Source of the DNA: Ostreococcus lucimarinus
Lineage: Eukaryota
Assembly: GCA_000092065.1 (NCBI GenBank)
Contig: CP000587.1
Reading direction: 5' to 3' (one strand)
Length of the DNA: 64,000 nt
Below, piece by piece: positions 44,946-53,794 of this stretch; position 1 is the stretch's first letter; the number at the start of each line of letters is the position of its first letter. The translations under genes and the position numbers were made by a program. The notes below the pieces were generated by a model, which had not been told where the DNA came from, made no database searches, and worked only from the letters and a program-made list of their open reading frames with translations.

Positions 44946-45446
44946 GTGGAGGCGAGCGGGACGGCGCGGTCGAGCTCGCCGGGGGAGGTTTGGGTGCCCG
45001 AAGATTTGGTCGATTTGCGAGGGAAATCGGCGAGGCAGTGGAGTCCGATCGCGTTGGCGTTTTTAGGCGACGCCGTGTTCGAGTTGTACGCGCGAGGGGT
45101 GTTTTTTTACCCGCCCGCGAAACCGCTCGAATACGATTTGAAGACAAAGCGACTGGCGCGCGCCGAGGCGCAGGATTTTTTGCTCAGGCTCTTGATCGAC
45201 GGCGACGCGTTGAGCGAGGAGGAGGTTTCAATCGTAAAATGGGGGCGGAACGCGGCGTACGGGAACATTCCGACGCGATTAAAAGGGAAAGGGAAGGGCG
45301 GGCACGGGACGTATCGCAACGCGAGCGCGCTCGAGTGCCTCGTGGGCTACCTCTACGTCGTCGATCGCGCGCGACTGCAGGAAGTGATGACGATCGTCAT
45401 GTCTGAGACCGCCATCGAGGGCGCGTTGGCGCTGTCTTCGAAATAG
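44946..45446 (+). CDS. Mini-ribonuclease III (MrnC/RNC3-4-like), 5'-incomplete model (no in-frame ATG)
   Basis: SPIALAFLGDAVFELYARGVFF...SEEEVSIVKWGRNA...YRNASALECLVGYLYV matches the Mini-III family across the whole catalytic domain. The ORF starts at GTG 44946 and is bounded upstream by TGA at 44907-44909. No ATG precedes the domain. Confidence 0.65.
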   Translation: MEASGTARSSSPGEVWVPEDLVDLRGKSARQWSPIALAFLGDAVFELYARGVFFYPPAKPLEYDLKTKRLARAEAQDFLLRLLIDGDALSEEEVSIVKWGRNAAYGNIPTRLKGKGKGGHGTYRNASALECLVGYLYVVDRARLQEVMTIVMSETAIEGALALSSK

Positions 45447-45528: not shown

Positions 45529-45792
45529 CTACCGCCCGCGCGCGCGATTGACGTACAAATTCGCGATGGACAGCCCTAAAAACAACCCATACAACCCCGC
45601 CGCCTGCGACAGATTCGCGCTCGCGATCTCGTGCGTCATTCCCGGCGCTTTCCAATCCGAACCGAGGTGCGCGTAGTGCTTCTTAAACAGATGCGACAGC
45701 GCCGCGCAGACGACGACACCGAACGCGCTGAGTCCGGCGCAGCACGTCGCGCTTTGCGAGCTCGTCGCGATCGCGAGCACGCGGCCGAACAT
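45529..45792 (-). CDS. Hypothetical small membrane protein (87 aa, two hydrophobic segments, GxxxG-like)
   Basis: ATG at 45792-45790. Non-repetitive sequence with two predicted helices (AGLSAFGVVVCAALSHLF; AAGLYGLFLGLSIANLYV). Confidence 0.3.
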   Translation of the reverse strand: MFGRVLAIATSSQSATCCAGLSAFGVVVCAALSHLFKKHYAHLGSDWKAPGMTHEIASANLSQAAGLYGLFLGLSIANLYVNRARGR

Positions 45793-45875
45793 CGTTCGCG
45801 CGCGCGTCGCGTCGCGGAATCACGTCACGCGCGCCGGACTCAGCGCGTCGTCACATCGCGACGACGCCGCGTTCG

Positions 45876-46415
45876 ATGGGCGAGCGCGGCGACGACGGCG
45901 CTCGCGATGGCGCCGAGCCGTCGTCGTCGTCATCGTCGCCGTCCTTCGCCCTGGTCTTGCTCCCGAGCGGGTTCGTCGTGCGCCCCGTGCCGCCGTGGCC
46001 CGATGCGCGTCGGACGTCCCGGTTGGCGCACGCGCAGCGCGCGCTGGACGCGCTGACGCATCAGTACGACCGGGCGTGGCGAGAGATCGCGAGCGACGTA
46101 TTGCACCGAGGCGTGATGCCGGCAAACGGGGCGCTGAGCGCGCTGCCGATCGTGTACGTCGACGGTGGATGCGCGTGCGAGGTTTGGGACTATCGCGGCG
46201 GCGCGGCGAACGCCGTCGCCGACGTTCGGACGGTGCGGTTGCGAGCGACGTCGGCGACGATCGCGCGGGACGCGGAGATAGAAGCAAATGCGATGGAGGC
46301 GTTGGAAGACGAGGACGCGGCGACGATGCGGCGGTTGCGTTTAGAGGGAGCTCTGCTCGCGGCGACGAAGCCGGCGCTGCGCCTGGAATCGCCTTCGCGC
46401 GAAGACGCTTCTTAG
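45876..46415 (+). CDS. Hypothetical protein (179 aa)
   Basis: ATG at 45876. Mostly non-repetitive. No recognisable motif. Confidence 0.3.
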   Translation: MGERGDDGARDGAEPSSSSSSPSFALVLLPSGFVVRPVPPWPDARRTSRLAHAQRALDALTHQYDRAWREIASDVLHRGVMPANGALSALPIVYVDGGCACEVWDYRGGAANAVADVRTVRLRATSATIARDAEIEANAMEALEDEDAATMRRLRLEGALLAATKPALRLESPSREDAS

Positions 46416-46424
46416 TTGCCACGA

Positions 46425-46543
46425 CGCGCGCGCGCGCGTCGAGACGGCGAATAGCTCGCTCGCCCATAGTGTATTTTTATATATTGCAGTTTTCTAGCGA
46501 ATCTAGGCGCGATCGCACCGCGCGCGCGCGCGTCGAGACTGCG
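46425..46543. promoter_or_regulatory. Pair of 25-bp direct repeats (cgcgcgcgcgcgcgtcgagac[g/t]gcg) flanking an AT-rich TATA-like segment upstream of the TIG/EGF protein gene
   Basis: Copy 1 at 46425-46449. Copy 2 at 46519-46543. Between them lies gtgtatttttatatattgcag. Confidence 0.5.
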
Positions 46544-46708
46544 CTGACAAGCCCTCGAGAGCGTGGCCCGAAATCTCGAGGCCGTTGGCGTGCGAGCCGC
46601 GGCATAGCACGCCTCGCATATCACGCCCGCGAGCGTCCATGCGCACCGACGACGCGCGCAAAACGTAAAACACGCGCGTCCGCGCGCGTCTTCGCGTCGA
46701 ACGGCGCG

Positions 46709-49700
46709 ATGCGCGCCGCGAGGTACCGTCGCGCGCGTCGACGCGTCGACGACCGGGACAGCGGCCGCGGCCGTGGTGTCGTCGCGCTGTGCGCGGTCGT
46801 CGTCGCGCTCGCGCGGGTGAGAACGAGCGGTGGTGAAGCGATATGGGGGTTAGAGACCGTGTACGATGGTTTGGGGTATAATCCAGAGTTCCCGACGCAG
46901 GTTTGCGGCCCGTCCAAGGATGGGAACTCTTTTCGCGCCGCGGGTTGCAAACCGGCGATTACAGAGAAGGATTCGTACGGCACCGCGGGTGATCCGGGAT
47001 TTAGTTTCGCGAGGTACGCGTATAAAGGAAAATCATACGGGCCACCATATAATAATGTAGCGGACGTGGCGGCGTGTACGTACTCGTTGACGTACGCCGC
47101 GGCGGAGGCGGCGGGCCTGGAGCACTGCTTTTACGCTCCGTACACGGGTGGCGTGCCGACGACGACGGTGCAGAAGACGACGACGAACTTGGGATACTCC
47201 ACTCTAGGTTGGCGTCTACCCTTGGCTGAATGGCGAGATAAGTTGCCGGATTACGTGGTGGAACGATACGAATTACCGCCGCTTCGGTTGGGCTTCGAGG
47301 AGGGGACGTTTTGGCCGAATTGGAAGCTACTCTCGAGCGGTTTGCCAAACTTTGCCGTGACGAAGACATGTTTTCTTGAAGCGCACAGCGGAGACTATCA
47401 GCTGTGTAGCGCCTATCCGACGGAGCGTCGCGAAGATATTCACGGCGTCCTTCAAGTGCAAAGCATCTCATTCGCACTCGGGCGTGGGAGCTTGTTCTTT
47501 GAGGCAAACGGCGGAGATAAAAACGTCCCAGACATACCTCAAGACCCGTATCCCATAGCTTCGCACGGGAAAGGTGCGCTTGGAGTTGCGTTAACGAGGA
47601 TTAGCGATGGGTATCGAGTGCTGACAAAACCTGTGCGCGCGAGAAGATATTGGGAAACCTTACGTTGGGAGGAGTCTTTACTCGCACAGTATTACGGGGA
47701 GGTTTTTAGGTTGGAGATTTTCGATTATCGTTCGGGTTCGTTCGGTTGGCTCGCGGTGGATTCTTTCGTAATTCCGCAGGCGCCTGTTATCATCACGGAG
47801 GTGACTCCATCGATTGGACCTCGAGTCGGTGGCACGAGAATCACTATCAGCGGGCAAAACTTTGGAAGTTCCGTTGACGACAAAACCGTGTTCATCGGCG
47901 ATAAAGAATGCATCGACTTACGCATGAGTTATTCTCGTTGTTCGTCCGATACCACCGTTTGTGCTGGTGCGTTGAGCTGTACTACACCAGCAGGTTCCGG
48001 GGTAGGTCTCACAGTAGCGGTGGTGATTGGAGACCCAACCGTCGTCCGCATCGCAGGGCCGCGAGGTGGGTTCCAAGCGGGTTTTTGCGGCGATGAATCG
48101 ACCGAGCATCCCTTCTCCGAATGTGCAATAGATGCAATCGATGCTGTCGCTGGAGCGCGAAAGCGTGGCTTTACTTACGCTGATCCTCCGACGGTGACAA
48201 GTACGCCAGTCACGAGTGCGATCCAAGACATTCAGTACGAGTACACGCTCATTGCTACGGACCCAGACGAGAACGACTTATTGACGTATACGGCAATTAC
48301 GTTACCAACGTTTTTGCAGTTTGATCCAACGACTCGTCTACTTACTGGCGTGCCATTACGGTCAGATGTACAATGTAGGAGCAACAATTGGCACCCAGCT
48401 TCTGAGCGCTGCGCGTTGGGAGCAACGTATCAAGTTGAGTTTGAGATCTCGGACTCAATATACAGAGTTCAGCACAACTTTGAAGTGAAAGTGACGACGA
48501 ATGAGACCTCACTTCTTGTTGATAAGTCCTTTCACTGGGAAAACGCGTTACAAATCTTTGAAAAATACGAAGCCGTCGTTGCTTTGGGGTCGGTTACAGA
48601 ATCGCTCAAAGCCTTGGAAAATAGGAACGTGACGAGTCCGACAGAAATCGTTGGCTTCAATTATAGAAATCCTTTGAATGATGAGGATAAAACGATCCGT
48701 AATGCCCTCATCGCTATTGCAGAGAAGCCGAATATCGATGAAGTCGACGTCGATGCGGCCATTCAGTGGCTGCAAACGAACAACTCTGACGCCGTAAACC
48801 TTGATATGATCCAGGCGCTCAAAGAGCAAGTTGCGGTACAGAAGCGAGGAGACGTATCCAGCGGTGCTTCGGCACCAGCGTTGCAAGGCGTCAGCTGGAA
48901 AGGCTGGTTAAATTATTTTAAAAAACTAGGAACGTCGCTCGGCGCTGGATCTGCCGTTTACACAAATGTTGCTGGGCTCCCCGTTCCAGCCGGCGCAACG
49001 AAAATGCTTACGCGGGAGAAGATAATTGTCATCAAACTATCGACTCCTTGCAACTCGACCGCGTTGAACACGGACAGATATATTCCATCATGTGACGCGG
49101 TTGTGGGTATGTCATCACAGCACGAGGTCTGGCTCGGATTCAGTGACTACGGAACAACGTTGGAGGATGTCATCGTGTTCCCCGAGGATTTTGAGTTTGC
49201 GGATCTTGTTACGTCGGCCGTCTTTACACAAGACGTTCCAGGTTTTCTCGGTCAATTAACTAGACGAATGGTGGCGCAATCAGCAAAGCTACAGGAAATC
49301 GCAACATTGGGCGAAACACACCTTGTATGGTTCGATACATCCACGTCTATGCTAACCGTGAACATGACCATCAAGTCTTCACCGGTGAAAGCAGTCATGC
49401 AACTTGCAACTTCGTATCCTTATCCCGAACCTGGAAAGTATGGATTACCCGAGATTAGCGTTGTGAGCTGCGATAACGTGGCGTACGACTATGAAAACGC
49501 GCTCATTTCATTCAGCAATACCATGACGAGAACTGGTGGATCTTTGACCAGTCGTCTCGCAGCGTTGGCGAACGATGTCTCAACATTTGCGTCACGGTGC
49601 AAAAATTTATGCAACGGTCAGGGTCTGTGCCAAGATTCGCAACTGCCACCCGTTTGTCAGTGTTATCAGGACTACTTCGGCGATGATTGCTCGCAAGTAA

Positions 49701-51148
49701 CGTGTCCGAATGATTGCAGTAATAATGGCGCCTGCGATTCGAGGCAAGTATGTACGCACTTCCCGGAAAGCGGCGAAACAGACTGCTCCGGTGGAACTGG
49801 AAAGTGTGCGTGTAATTACCCTTACTTTGGCAAGGATTGCTCGTTAAAAACATGTGCGAAGAATTTCATCGTTTTTGAAGGTAATTCGACGCACAAGCTC
49901 GACGTCACGGCCGGAACGCAACCTATCAAGGACAAATACACCGCGCTCGGTCTCGATGTGTATGACGTGAAGATTAGCGAAACCAATGGTGACCAACCTG
50001 CAGCTTGGGCAATTCAAGGAGACGAGCTTAGCTTGGCGCATCTTGTTGGATCGGCTTACGTGGAATTTACCAGCTCTGAAGACGGAGAAACGGCGAGATC
50101 ACTGGAGCCATTTTACGTTGACTCTATCCCCAGTCGTGGCGTCGCAATCGAGGCACAATATTTTGCGCAGGAGTACCGCACTTTCGTAAAGCGTGAGCAA
50201 CAGCTACTAGATTTGTTCGGCAAAAGCTCATCAGAGTGCAACGCCGCCGGTGCTTGTGCCTTTGAAACCGGTACGTGCTTCTGTGCGACGCAGTATTATG
50301 GGGCCGGTTGTGAATTTCAGTACTGCGCAAATGATTGTGCAGGTCACGGTACGTGCAATAAGCTTACCGGTGTGTGTACGTGCGAAACACACTACGTGAC
50401 AGATGAAACATATGGATGCGCTTTGAAGGACTATAGTTTGATTTCAACCACGTGCACTGACGAAGCACTTGATAGAGAGGTTGATGACGCTGATCTGCGC
50501 GTGCGTCCATTACACGCATCATGTCTCTTTGGTACAAGATTGGGTAGCCCTGTGACTGGCACGACGACGACTTATATCACTGACTTACAAGGTAATGTGT
50601 GTTTGGATTGCTCTGGTTATACTCTAGAGTCGAACTCCAGGATTTATTTTTACGAAGACGAACCATGCACTTCGTCTGCTGGGAACCGCGAAGACTTTTG
50701 CGACAACACGAAAGAGTCCTACGACACCATCGTTCGCGGCATTGGCATGATACCCGCTGGAGACAGTGGGTCGACTCTTTCATTCAACCTCGCCGCCATG
50801 CGTACATCGGATATTCAGTTTTCTATTTTCAAGGCAAAGGCGGGGATCGTAAGAGAGCATTTAGCTGACATCGATGCGGGCGGTTGTGGTGCATGTACGG
50901 ACGATAATCCCCAGTGCGGCGCCATATTCACTATCGCCGTCGATGGTGTTACCGTATGGACTTCGTTGGTGAACAACAAGTACTCCGAGATCAACATCGA
51001 TATCAGCGCTGCCAGTACCATGACACTCTCCACAGCAAAGTACACCCCGCCGTATTGGCGTTCCAACGTCTTGCCTGGTCTCGCAGGACAAGACGCACCT
51101 GCCGTTTGGTGCGATGGCGCCGCTTGGGCGGACGCAGAGTTCTATTAG
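46709..51148 (+). CDS. Large extracellular/surface protein: signal-anchor, IPT/TIG domain, cadherin-like (He_PIG/CADG-type) domain, multiple tenascin-type EGF repeats
   Basis: Hydrophobic N-terminus VVALCAVVVALARV after ATG 46709. TIG-like VIPQAPVIITEVTPSIGPRVGGTRITISGQNFG. He_PIG/cadherin-like YEYTLIATDPDENDLLTYTAITLPTFLQFDPTTRLLTGVP. EGF repeats CNGQGLCQDS..CQCYQDYFGDDCSQVTCPNDCSNNGACDS and CNAAGACAFETGTCFCATQYYGAGCEFQYCANDCAGHGTCNKLTGVCTC. The track ORF from 45995 adds Arg-rich low-complexity sequence. Confidence 0.8.
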   Translation: MRAARYRRARRRVDDRDSGRGRGVVALCAVVVALARVRTSGGEAIWGLETVYDGLGYNPEFPTQVCGPSKDGNSFRAAGCKPAITEKDSYGTAGDPGFSFARYAYKGKSYGPPYNNVADVAACTYSLTYAAAEAAGLEHCFYAPYTGGVPTTTVQKTTTNLGYSTLGWRLPLAEWRDKLPDYVVERYELPPLRLGFEEGTFWPNWKLLSSGLPNFAVTKTCFLEAHSGDYQLCSAYPTERREDIHGVLQVQSISFALGRGSLFFEANGGDKNVPDIPQDPYPIASHGKGALGVALTRISDGYRVLTKPVRARRYWETLRWEESLLAQYYGEVFRLEIFDYRSGSFGWLAVDSFVIPQAPVIITEVTPSIGPRVGGTRITISGQNFGSSVDDKTVFIGDKECIDLRMSYSRCSSDTTVCAGALSCTTPAGSGVGLTVAVVIGDPTVVRIAGPRGGFQAGFCGDESTEHPFSECAIDAIDAVAGARKRGFTYADPPTVTSTPVTSAIQDIQYEYTLIATDPDENDLLTYTAITLPTFLQFDPTTRLLTGVPLRSDVQCRSNNWHPASERCALGATYQVEFEISDSIYRVQHNFEVKVTTNETSLLVDKSFHWENALQIFEKYEAVVALGSVTESLKALENRNVTSPTEIVGFNYRNPLNDEDKTIRNALIAIAEKPNIDEVDVDAAIQWLQTNNSDAVNLDMIQALKEQVAVQKRGDVSSGASAPALQGVSWKGWLNYFKKLGTSLGAGSAVYTNVAGLPVPAGATKMLTREKIIVIKLSTPCNSTALNTDRYIPSCDAVVGMSSQHEVWLGFSDYGTTLEDVIVFPEDFEFADLVTSAVFTQDVPGFLGQLTRRMVAQSAKLQEIATLGETHLVWFDTSTSMLTVNMTIKSSPVKAVMQLATSYPYPEPGKYGLPEISVVSCDNVAYDYENALISFSNTMTRTGGSLTSRLAALANDVSTFASRCKNLCNGQGLCQDSQLPPVCQCYQDYFGDDCSQVTCPNDCSNNGACDSRQVCTHFPESGETDCSGGTGKCACNYPYFGKDCSLKTCAKNFIVFEGNSTHKLDVTAGTQPIKDKYTALGLDVYDVKISETNGDQPAAWAIQGDELSLAHLVGSAYVEFTSSEDGETARSLEPFYVDSIPSRGVAIEAQYFAQEYRTFVKREQQLLDLFGKSSSECNAAGACAFETGTCFCATQYYGAGCEFQYCANDCAGHGTCNKLTGVCTCETHYVTDETYGCALKDYSLISTTCTDEALDREVDDADLRVRPLHASCLFGTRLGSPVTGTTTTYITDLQGNVCLDCSGYTLESNSRIYFYEDEPCTSSAGNREDFCDNTKESYDTIVRGIGMIPAGDSGSTLSFNLAAMRTSDIQFSIFKAKAGIVREHLADIDAGGCGACTDDNPQCGAIFTIAVDGVTVWTSLVNNKYSEINIDISAASTMTLSTAKYTPPYWRSNVLPGLAGQDAPAVWCDGAAWADAEFY

Positions 51149-51709
51149 CTTTTAGCCGAGTATTCACACGAATGCCATTTAATAGACATTAAATTCCTAG
51201 CGCATCTCCATCTCTTGCCAGACCAACCGCCGGTCTCCAGGCGTGCTAAAACACCAAGTGGGCGTCACTTCGTGGCGTTCACGCACGTTCTATAGTCCAG
51301 CGCGCGCGCTGCTAGCGATCAAAAAGCGTCATGCGCTCCGTGCAGCTCGGCACGCACGCGCATAACGCCCTGCTCGGCGTCACAAGCGCGGGCGACGGTC
51401 GATGCGTGAGCACCGTAGCAAAAGACGGCGTCGTGACGTACGACGTCGAGGAAGAGGTAAAAGAGCGTTCACGCAATCGACGCGAAATATATGACAATAT
51501 TTGACGCACGCGTTGCGTCGCGTGCGTGCGGACGACGTTGTGCGCGCGCCGATCGCTCGAAGTTTGCGACGTCGTAAAAGTGGCGGCTGAGGGCGAAGGG
51601 CGAGTCGAGCACGTCGCTCTCGAGGCGTTCAAACGAAGCAAACGCGATCGAATGGAGCGAGAACTGACGATGAAAACGTTTTTACGCTTCGCAGAAACGA
51701 GAGCGAACG

Positions 51710-53794
51710 TTGGCGCTCGATCGAGGGCGAAAGTTTGCTTGCGCGGTGGCGTGTGGGTCGAATGGCAGGTATTACGCGTGTTTGGAGAAGGAACAAGAAA
51801 GTGATTCATCGTATTTGTGCGCGTGGGAGACGGAGCAAAGCGCAAACGCGGCGACGGTTGGTGAAGCATCGAAAGAGTGCGTCACAACTCTCGATTTAGG
51901 ACGCAGTGGTCGAGTGCGTGAGTTGGTGGCGGTGGACGGCGGCGCTCTCGTGGTGACGACAACGGGGGAGGTCCAACTCTTCGGGATGTCGGCGGAACAC
52001 ATTGACAAAGCGCGCACGAGTGGAGAGTTAGGCTCTCGACGAGTAGAGACGGCGTCGGTTTTACCTGAATCAGTTGGTGCACTCGTAGTGACGACGGATG
52101 GTAACTTTCAGGGTCGCAAAATAGCCACATTTCTTGCCCGCGCGCAAACCGTGACATTGGCTTGGGAGCTGGACATCGAGCACCCGGACGGCGCGGCAAA
52201 AGCCAGAGTGGCGAGCGCGGCAAGTGATGGGGAGACTTTCATGGTATTATGGGACGATGGCGTCTGGGCCCTGCACGACGCGAGCGATGGGTCTCTCAAG
52301 CACAAGCTGCGACTCGACGGGCTCGATGTGCATTGTGATGAAGCCACATCTGGGAAGCGGAGTAAGAAGAGCGAAGATACCTCACCGTTAGCAAGTGCGG
52401 CGTCTTTGTGCCTTTCTCAGGATTATTACGCCGTCGTGGCGAACTCGAAGGAAGAAAATACCGTGGTAGTGGCCGTTTTTGATTCGCGTTACGGCGCCGT
52501 GCACTTGGCGGAGGACGTTAGCCGAGGCTTAGAACACAAAGTTGGCCGAACGTCCGGGGTGAGCCTCGCCGCAACTTCGGGTAATCTGATCGTTGGTCTT
52601 TCTGATCAAGTGGTTTCGGTACAGTTCGATCTTCCTGAACTCTCTTTAGCTTCGCTCGTGGGATCGCTCAGCATACACTCGCAACCGGAGGCGAGCGCAG
52701 CGGCAATTCGAGTTTTGGGTGCGGAGACAGCATCTACGGCACTCGTACCGCCGCAACACGCGGCTGTGACACCTGGCTGGAAACTAGAGGAGTTAAAACT
52801 TGATGGCCAAGGAGTCGTCAGTTTGAGCAATGTCTGGGACGACGACGACGCACAGACCAGGGAGAAGAAGGTCCGGTCGACTGCTGAAGCTTTGGCGAGC
52901 GGTAGCAAAAAGGCGGGCTCATCGTTACAGACTCTGATGAAATCCCTTCCGATTCCGCAAATTCTCATAGAAAGTGCCATTAGTGGTGGTTTAAATCATC
53001 GAGTGTGGGATTCAGTGACACTTTTGCTCGCCGGTGGACACATTCGTGGCTCTTCGACGGCGAGACAATTAGTGACGGCGCTTCTTGAGGAAGACATGCT
53101 TGACGAAGTCAAGGACTTCTTAGTGTACGCCAAGGACGTTTCTGCTGAAGATATCGTTGCGATTTTACACTCTGCAATGATGCGAGACGAAGACGACCCT
53201 GGGTTGAAGAAGCGCGCTTCAGCGAACAAAAAGCTCGCAGAAAAGGTACTCGACGAAGCAGAGGCATGCGCGTCTGATGAAAAGTTCAATGGCGAAGCTA
53301 AACAAAAGCTGTTTGCCAGAGCTCAACTCTTAGTGAGTGCGTACGATAGTTTTGCACCATGGGCACAACAACTTCATCCCCTCATCGCTCGTCCGTTGGA
53401 TCCAACGATGGGTATGCTAGTGTTGCGTGATCTCTCCAAGCAAGACGCGGTTTCGCTACTTCAGTATTTGCTCGTCTGGGCTAACTTTTACGCTTCATCG
53501 GGCGGCTATTTCGCCCGGATCAACACTCTAGTCGAACCTGGGATTCCCAGCGCGCACGCGGTCGTGACGTGGACGTCCGCGTTGCTCGACGCGCAGTTCA
53601 CGACGTTTTGTCTCTCAGACGACGTCGCCGAACCCGTGCGCGCGCTGCGAGAGTCTTCGAGCCAAATGCTCGATATGATGCGCTCTTTAGCCGCCCTCGG
53701 AGGTGCGTTCAGACACGTCGGCGAGAACTCTCCGCTTCCCGAACAACACGGCGTACAGTCCACGACGTACACCGTAGAGAGCGTGGCTTGGTAA
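51710..53794 (+). CDS. Hypothetical protein (beta-rich N-terminal region, alpha-helical C-terminal region); start unresolved
   Basis: A long non-repetitive ORF. The track start at 51710 is TTG; the first in-frame ATG is at 51986 (MSAEHIDK). Residues before it look like genuine coding sequence (VAVDGGALVVTTTGEVQLF). Confidence 0.5.
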   Translation: MALDRGRKFACAVACGSNGRYYACLEKEQESDSSYLCAWETEQSANAATVGEASKECVTTLDLGRSGRVRELVAVDGGALVVTTTGEVQLFGMSAEHIDKARTSGELGSRRVETASVLPESVGALVVTTDGNFQGRKIATFLARAQTVTLAWELDIEHPDGAAKARVASAASDGETFMVLWDDGVWALHDASDGSLKHKLRLDGLDVHCDEATSGKRSKKSEDTSPLASAASLCLSQDYYAVVANSKEENTVVVAVFDSRYGAVHLAEDVSRGLEHKVGRTSGVSLAATSGNLIVGLSDQVVSVQFDLPELSLASLVGSLSIHSQPEASAAAIRVLGAETASTALVPPQHAAVTPGWKLEELKLDGQGVVSLSNVWDDDDAQTREKKVRSTAEALASGSKKAGSSLQTLMKSLPIPQILIESAISGGLNHRVWDSVTLLLAGGHIRGSSTARQLVTALLEEDMLDEVKDFLVYAKDVSAEDIVAILHSAMMRDEDDPGLKKRASANKKLAEKVLDEAEACASDEKFNGEAKQKLFARAQLLVSAYDSFAPWAQQLHPLIARPLDPTMGMLVLRDLSKQDAVSLLQYLLVWANFYASSGGYFARINTLVEPGIPSAHAVVTWTSALLDAQFTTFCLSDDVAEPVRALRESSSQMLDMMRSLAALGGAFRHVGENSPLPEQHGVQSTTYTVESVAW

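Follow-up and report, generated by a model that had tools for sequence, protein, structure and literature searches.

A 4.4-kb gene of Ostreococcus lucimarinus predicted to encode a secreted, cysteine-rich mosaic protein with a candidate binding module at each end

What is a very large protein of adhesion-like build doing in a tightly packed locus of a unicellular picoalga, and is it the tenascin-type, metazoan-style surface protein, fixed by a hydrophobic signal-anchor and unusual for such an organism, that an initial annotation made from the letters had proposed? The question arises from a window of 64,000 nucleotides of Ostreococcus lucimarinus (assembly GCA_000092065.1, contig CP000587.1; "the window" means this whole stretch), in which the gene concerned occupies positions 46709 to 51148 on the + strand. 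It is a single nuclear gene of O. lucimarinus, and its neighbouring open reading frames (ORFs) are identical to the CCE9901 proteins XP_001418997.1 and XP_001418999.1, whose genes lie on a chromosome of 783 kb. The answer that we favour, with somewhat better than even confidence, is that the product is a secreted, disulfide-rich mosaic glycoprotein that serves outside the cell as a lectin or adhesin scaffold and has binding modules at both of its ends. It is a lineage-specific combination of domains already known and introduces no new principle.

From ATG 46709 to the stop codon ending at 51148 the reading frame is unbroken over 1,479 codons plus stop, in agreement with the roughly 1,480 codons counted in the initial annotation. 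The mechanically delimited ORF is longer (45995..51148, +, GTG start, 1,717 residues), and the objection already raised there, that this frame begins 714 nucleotides too early, is borne out. ATG 46709, 714 nucleotides 3' of the GTG, is the first plausible start, and as a predicted start it is supported from four sides: many public contigs record a product of exactly 1,479 residues; where the N-termini of relatives can be aligned, the proteins open with a short hydrophobic stretch that leads into a conserved (I/V/A)W(G/N)L motif; the 714 nucleotides upstream match no Pfam family; and they overlap, in another frame, an ORF of 179 residues (45876-46415, +) of ordinary protein composition. This small ORF, called by gene-callers on 372 public contigs and matching no Pfam family above threshold, is probably a real gene, and because it occupies the other frame there, the Arg-rich "junk" upstream of the ATG is an off-frame reading of GC-rich DNA. 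We therefore rejected the upstream stretch as a coding part of the protein, given its lack of a Pfam match, its overlap with the 179-residue gene and the fact that the relatives begin at the signal peptide. A division of the region into several genes, a concern voiced in the initial annotation, is ruled out by the single ORF, by 22 full-length relatives aligning collinearly and by family members in transcriptome-derived MMETSP records, two of which are marked complete. Public models of the gene are themselves inconsistent: some (P0001, 1,559 residues) begin 80 codons too early, at a site that is not conserved, and others are truncated models of 1,308 residues.

The family alignment served as input for two AlphaFold2 models, which were compared with the PDB, one for residues 38-600 (predicted local distance difference test, pLDDT, 71) and one for residues 596-1479 (pLDDT 78). 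With domain boundaries that are approximate, the features of the gene are as follows.

46709..51148, + strand: complete intron-less coding sequence, supported by the ORF and its translation, a public product of identical length, collinear relatives and the ratio of non-synonymous to synonymous substitution rates (dN/dS)
46709..46834, + strand: predicted signal peptide, about residues 1-42, with an Arg-rich n-region, the h-region VVALCAVVVALA and a probable cleavage site, inferred, just before EAIWGLE
46835..47278, + strand: N-terminal region, about residues 43-190, with four conserved Cys (66, 80, 123, 140) and pLDDT mostly below 50
47279..47782, + strand: beta jelly-roll resembling cleaved-adhesin, MAM and carbohydrate-binding modules (CBM), about residues 191-358, the best-conserved module of the family
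47783..48043, + strand: IPT/TIG Ig-like domain, about residues 359-445, with Pfam PF01833 at 361-442
48044..48184, + strand: conserved Cys-containing linker, about residues 446-492, with C460, C472 and the motif GPxGGxQAGxCGDES, belonging to no assigned family
48185..48496, + strand: He_PIG or dystroglycan-type cadherin-like Ig domain (Pfam PF05345), about residues 493-596, pLDDT 83-94
48497..49588, + strand: middle region, about residues 597-960, helical at about 613-743 (low confidence), then alpha/beta at about 749-960 with an RWD/UBC-like fold
49589..49855, + strand: EGF modules 1 and 2 and the first Cys of module 3, residues 961-1049, with Pfam EGF_2, EGF_TEN and EGF_Teneurin stretches
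49856..50236, + strand: inserted alpha/beta domain of about 125 residues (1050-1176) with a fold like that of the RNA recognition motif (RRM), between C1049 and C1177
50237..50419, + strand: rest of EGF module 3 and EGF module 4, residues 1177-1237, with EGF_2 at 1206-1229 and EGF_TEN at 1176-1233
50420..50728, + strand: Cys-rich linker, about residues 1238-1340, with conserved Cys 1249, 1272, 1298, 1301, 1320 and 1331 and no family assignment
50729..51145, + strand: CBM51/NPCBM carbohydrate-binding-module fold, about residues 1341-1479, recognised by structure comparison

Is such a gene kept, and by whom? Seven clusters at 62-67% identity represent other Ostreococcus lineages, the representative of the O. 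tauri cluster being full-length and collinear at 64%; O. tauri relatives are deposited as CEF98842.1/XP_022839501.1 ("EGF-like, conserved site") and OUS47253.1 ("tenascin X"). A further group stands at about 40% identity, Micromonas pusilla MICPUCDRAFT_67563 at 49% in a partial model covering only the first ~39%, and a Pycnococcus provasolii "EGF-like domain-containing protein", full-length and collinear, at 36%; a few more lineages diverge beyond this level. The collinear relatives in O. tauri, Micromonas and Pycnococcus, which belong to the same family, share the conserved Cys and bear automatic names only, are probably orthologues. When the C-terminal half (residues 961-1479) was used as query, fragments of family members and a single unrelated EGF protein were all that came back, and a scan of IMG/VR found no relative on viral contigs. 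The family thus far looks restricted to prasinophyte-type picoalgae, a distribution inferred from the few hits that carry organism names. The architecture had been called unusual for a picoalga, and this holds in one sense, as no equivalent was found outside the family in the searches made; within the lineage it does not hold, the gene being conserved in Ostreococcus, Micromonas and Pycnococcus and lying among housekeeping genes.

The gene is under purifying selection. Comparison with a diverged environmental variant (L004) gave 137.8 synonymous and 97.2 non-synonymous differences over the whole gene, corresponding to a dS of 0.146, a dN of 0.029 and a dN/dS of 0.20. By segment, the ratio is lowest in the RRM-like insert (0.05), the jelly-roll (0.09), the He_PIG domain (0.10) and the CBM51 region (0.17), and the Cys-rich linker at 1238-1340 is the most relaxed segment (0.61). 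Apart from those in the signal peptide, nearly all of the 54 Cys of the protein recur in 18-23 of 23 relatives, a pattern that would fit a disulfide-bonded extracellular or lumenal protein.

How would the chain leave the cytosol? Its sole hydrophobic segment comprises residues 24-36 (VVALCAVVVALA), with 12-13 uncharged residues and a peak Kyte-Doolittle hydropathy of 1.64 in a 19-residue window. The relatives with an alignable N-terminus possess an h-region of 12-19 residues (mostly 13-19), after which VSA, ASA, GAA, VDG or ARA stands directly before the conserved mature start. A hydropathy scan of the 1,479-residue protein detected no other transmembrane segment, no tail of the glycosylphosphatidylinositol (GPI) type and no C-terminal hydrophobic tail, and a motif scan found no KDEL/HDEL retention signal. 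Because the short h-region with an AxA-type site precedes a conserved mature start and no other transmembrane segment exists, the N-terminus is most likely a cleavable signal peptide and the product most likely secreted and soluble; the signal-anchor of the initial annotation should accordingly be given up.

Between the signal peptide and the first recognisable module lies a region (about residues 43-190) without a Pfam family match, in which Cys 66, 80, 123 and 140 are conserved in 18-21 of 23 relatives. The jelly-roll that follows, 52-85% identical among family members, is the N-terminal candidate for a binding module. A search with it against 1.84 billion cluster representatives yielded 83 proteins, about nine of which are family members; the remainder carry the module at 28-40% identity, often in tandem (the copies lie about 190 residues apart in proteins P0094-P0167). 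Scans of 10 and 7 of these relatives with Pfam and NCBIfam showed most of them to have PEP-CTERM sorting signals, and others to have DNRLRE/CBM96, PA14 or fasciclin partners, several being named Verrucomicrobiales or autotransporter-type. A profile of 23 jelly-roll modules matched the Lys-gingipain adhesin domain in PDB entry 3m1h at E 1.4e-5 and did so end to end (profile positions 4-176 of 181 against chain residues 6-175). No Pfam model, Cleaved_Adhesin and MAM included, matches the jelly-roll in the window protein or in the 23 members, weak CBM_17_28 matches being confined to four members; nor does NCBIfam have a model for the module, and by comparison with PDB structures the module is closer to binding modules than to enzymes. 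The profile match relates the jelly-roll, at the level of sequence comparison, to the cleaved-adhesin/MAM superfamily, and the module looks like an undescribed, widespread domain family akin to the gingipain cleaved-adhesin domains. Cleaved-adhesin domains have in common a Ca2+ site of the CBM kind, and those of gingipains bind erythrocytes and albumin, going by the title of a paper (Ganuelas et al. 2013) that PMC4882317 cites.

At the opposite end, residues of about 1341-1479 match the CBM51 beta-sandwich in structure comparison (Foldseek E ~1e-5), which makes the protein a CBM51 member by predicted fold. NPCBM (PF08305) matches occur in 8 of 12 relatives at E <0.1, the best at 2.2e-5. Profiles of the C-terminal region found no sequence-level match in the PDB, the CBM51 fold being recognised by structure comparison only, and an NCBIfam scan of the full protein gave no match. 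Characterised CBM51 members bind galactose-configured glycans.

The part between these two ends is composed of several modules, of which the initial annotation had recognised the Ig-like and EGF ones correctly. The two peptides that it quoted, PSIGPRVGGTRITISGQNFG and TDPDENDLLTYTAITLPTFLQFDPTTRLLTGVP, are both present in the translation, and the segments that it took for IPT/TIG and He_PIG/dystroglycan-cadherin-like domains score above their Pfam gathering thresholds (GA): PF01833 at residues 361-442 with E 6.4e-11 and 42.5 bits (GA 20.9), and PF05345 at residues 493-550 with E 8e-8 and 33.1 bits (GA 24). The TIG domain superposes, as an Ig-like fold, on solved IPT domains, its sequence matches in the PDB being plexin-A4, plexin-A1 and MET; the linker behind it (446-492) contains the invariant columns Q456, C460, G461, S464, P468, C472, R486 and G487. 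The two Cys-rich EGF clusters also stand, at residues 964-1049 and 1177-1237: EGF_2 (PF07974) is found in three stretches at 29.6 bits (GA 22.1), and every Cys of both clusters is conserved in 23/23 full-length relatives, including 15/15 in residues 961-1049. In the PDB the EGF part matches tubular mastigoneme proteins (9ufe) and scavenger receptor F1. The middle region, by comparison, is the least conserved part of the protein, with ~20% identity outside the genus. The N-terminal jelly-roll, the C-terminal CBM51 and the RRM-like insertion had not been spotted in the initial annotation. An RGD tripeptide occurs at residue 713.

The insertion within the EGF array deserves a word of its own. Residues 1050-1176 are modelled at pLDDT 82-93 with a beta-alpha-beta-beta-alpha-beta topology, and contain an RNP1-like motif (G-x-A-Y-V-E-F-x-S-S-E-D...A-R) that aligns weakly with the RRMs of nucleolin, HuR and PABP. 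We call this domain "RRM-like", a label that claims resemblance only. To judge by the Cys spacing, it apparently sits between the first and second Cys of EGF module 3, that is, in its first loop, and a strongly constrained RRM-like fold within a secreted EGF array is an unusual context.

With which known proteins, then, should this one be grouped? Its EGF modules have the same compact six-Cys spacing as the arrays of tenascins and teneurins. Neither name can be kept: a tenascin is rejected, as no FN3 or fibrinogen match appears at E up to 1 and the C-terminus is a CBM51 fold instead, and so is a teneurin, as EGF_TEN (PF25024) reaches 46.1 bits, under its GA of 65, the YD-shell is lacking and there are only four EGF modules. 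The O. tauri label "tenascin X" is consequently a misnomer, there being no FN3 or fibrinogen domain and only a sub-threshold EGF_TEN match. A classical cadherin fails likewise, with one He_PIG only, no Cadherin Pfam match and no transmembrane segment. The TIG domain is homologous at sequence level to those of the plexin, MET and RON ectodomains, but a receptor of the plexin/MET type is rejected too, since Sema, PSI, transmembrane, kinase and GAP parts were not found. For reelin, the likeness is at fold level only, without the reeler domain, the A-EGF-B repeat unit or the Asp-box. Nor does "metazoan-style" describe the best-conserved module, the jelly-roll, which is closest to bacterial PEP-CTERM or autotransporter-type surface proteins and to the gingipain adhesin; by sequence, the proteins nearest to it are bacterial, of the PEP-CTERM or tandem-repeat kind, and uncharacterised. 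Unlike the gingipain/HagA cleaved adhesins (Kgp K1-K3; PDB 3m1h, 4itc) and metazoan MAM proteins, the window protein has no protease partner or proteolytic processing sites. In Clostridium perfringens GH95/GH98 and ZmpB and in Streptococcus Sp3GH98, CBM51 accompanies bacterial proteins, whereas here the module sits on a non-enzymatic Ig/EGF stalk in a eukaryote and, compared with the bacterial modules, carries extra conserved Cys (1393, 1396, 1403, 1468).

Taken as a secreted two-ended scaffold, the protein might work in the following way. A cleavable signal peptide would take the chain into the endoplasmic reticulum, where ~50 conserved Cys would form disulfides, and the protein would then be released, as the lack of a transmembrane segment, GPI-type tail or KDEL/HDEL signal implies. 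The mature molecule would expose the adhesin/MAM/CBM-like jelly-roll towards its N-terminus and the CBM51-type module at its C-terminus, separated by a stalk of ~1,000 residues made up of TIG, He_PIG, the helical and RWD-like region and four EGF modules, one with the RRM-like insertion. It is these two terminal modules that suggest the lectin or adhesin function, and the two-ended layout would suit the tethering or cross-linking of glycoconjugates through glycan binding: one end could, for example, be held on the alga's own surface glycans and the other presented to a cell, particle, polymer or virus. Several points weigh against this picture. The signal-peptide call, most likely as we consider it, is drawn from sequence features. 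The middle region leaves 364 residues without a confident assignment in the models. NPCBM reaches only 18.8-18.9 bits on the window protein, under its GA of 23.9, and the CBM51 call stands, by modelling, at fold level and not at the level of sugar-binding residues. Ostreococcus is a naked cell without wall or scales. Finally, a literature search on the family, its accessions and tenascin or EGF proteins in Ostreococcus or Micromonas returned nothing relevant, and no ligand, localisation or phenotype for any member.

Two alternatives concern where the product resides. It could stay inside the cell as a lumenal secretory or vacuolar protein, serving as lectin-type cargo or quality-control receptor or as a Golgi matrix component. 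Conservation across naked, scaled and walled lineages would fit such an internal housekeeping role, and the locus among housekeeping genes and the presence of lectin-type modules speak the same way. We nevertheless regard it as unlikely, for the retention signal, transmembrane segment and cytosolic sorting tail are all missing, the TIG, He_PIG, EGF, CBM51 and cleaved-adhesin modules belong typically to proteins outside the cell, and the family is confined to prasinophyte-type picoalgae instead of being eukaryote-wide. Alternatively, the N-terminus could be an uncleaved signal-anchor, making the product a type II receptor with its ectodomain on the plasma membrane. The long Arg-rich n-region, with 22 residues before the h-region, favours the N-in orientation, and an anchor would explain retention on a naked cell. 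Against this, the stretch of 12-13 uncharged residues (mostly 13-19 in relatives) has small-x-small sites no more than 5-8 residues behind it, directly ahead of the conserved mature start, the hydropathy peak is only 1.64, and the n-region is conserved neither in length nor in sequence, relatives P0003, P0014 and P0020 having short ones; we hold this anchored form to be rather improbable.

Two further alternatives concern what the product does. As a glycan-active enzyme or protease, it would have a catalytic middle region (597-960) or jelly-roll targeted by the CBM51, as in bacterial GH95, GH98 and M60 proteins. The motif scan, however, revealed no HExxH, ExDxxE or other catalytic motif, the middle region shows no conserved His/Glu/Cys constellation, is the part that varies most (the ~20% identity given above) and matches RWD/UBC-like interaction domains by fold, and the jelly-roll fits binding modules better than enzymes, which leaves catalysis very unlikely. 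The EGF matches to tubular mastigoneme proteins (9ufe, E 1.2e-5 to 7.6e-3) raise the thought of a structural part of a flagellar hair, scale or wall-type appendage; yet generic EGF sequence of only ~50 residues is all that they span, nothing else of the mastigoneme type was found, and Ostreococcus is without flagella, scales and wall while keeping the full gene under purifying selection, so that we give this idea hardly any credence.

As for the surroundings of the gene, its neighbours in the window are of housekeeping kind: the ATR kinase, an SNF2 ATPase, HIRA, an RNase III-domain ORF, V-ATPase subunit f, EF-G and eIF5. The neighbourhood is not conserved outside the genus, as judged from the Pycnococcus locus and one contig with a distant relative, and gene context therefore provides no functional clue. 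The locus is tightly packed, two small genes, the RNase III-domain ORF (44946-45446, +) and V-ATPase subunit f (45529-45792, -), lying between HIRA and the 1,479-residue gene. Directly downstream is an ORF of 694 residues (51710-53794, +) without a Pfam family, called as a gene of 682-694 residues on other O. lucimarinus-like contigs. The GC content is 0.65-0.71 just upstream and at the 5' end of the gene (45800-47000), compared with 0.47-0.51 over most of the gene body (48200-51200); other long genes of the window are also low in GC (0.51-0.55), namely ATR at 8-14 kb and SNF2 at 38-42 kb.

What might such a protein mean to these algae? Few eukaryotic phototrophs of the sea are as abundant as Ostreococcus and its relatives, whose genomes are very small, and Micromonas, too, has neither wall nor scales. 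One speculative proposal, which we consider unlikely, is that of a pericellular two-ended lectin, specific to prasinophyte picoalgae, that would operate on naked cells in cell-cell contact (cryptic mating or aggregation) or in the attachment of prasinoviruses or particles, the RRM-like domain embedded in its EGF array representing a new extracellular use of that fold. More immediately, the present study offers a corrected gene model, a corrected annotation in which the protein is not a tenascin, and two testable candidate binding modules. We know of no molecule with a role in such interactions that has been characterised in these picoalgae. From Pycnococcus to Ostreococcus, purifying selection has preserved a 4.4-kb gene whose product is predicted to be secreted and to carry lectin-type modules at its ends, and such conservation makes it a concrete candidate for mediating the interaction of picoalgae with glycans, partners, particles or viruses.

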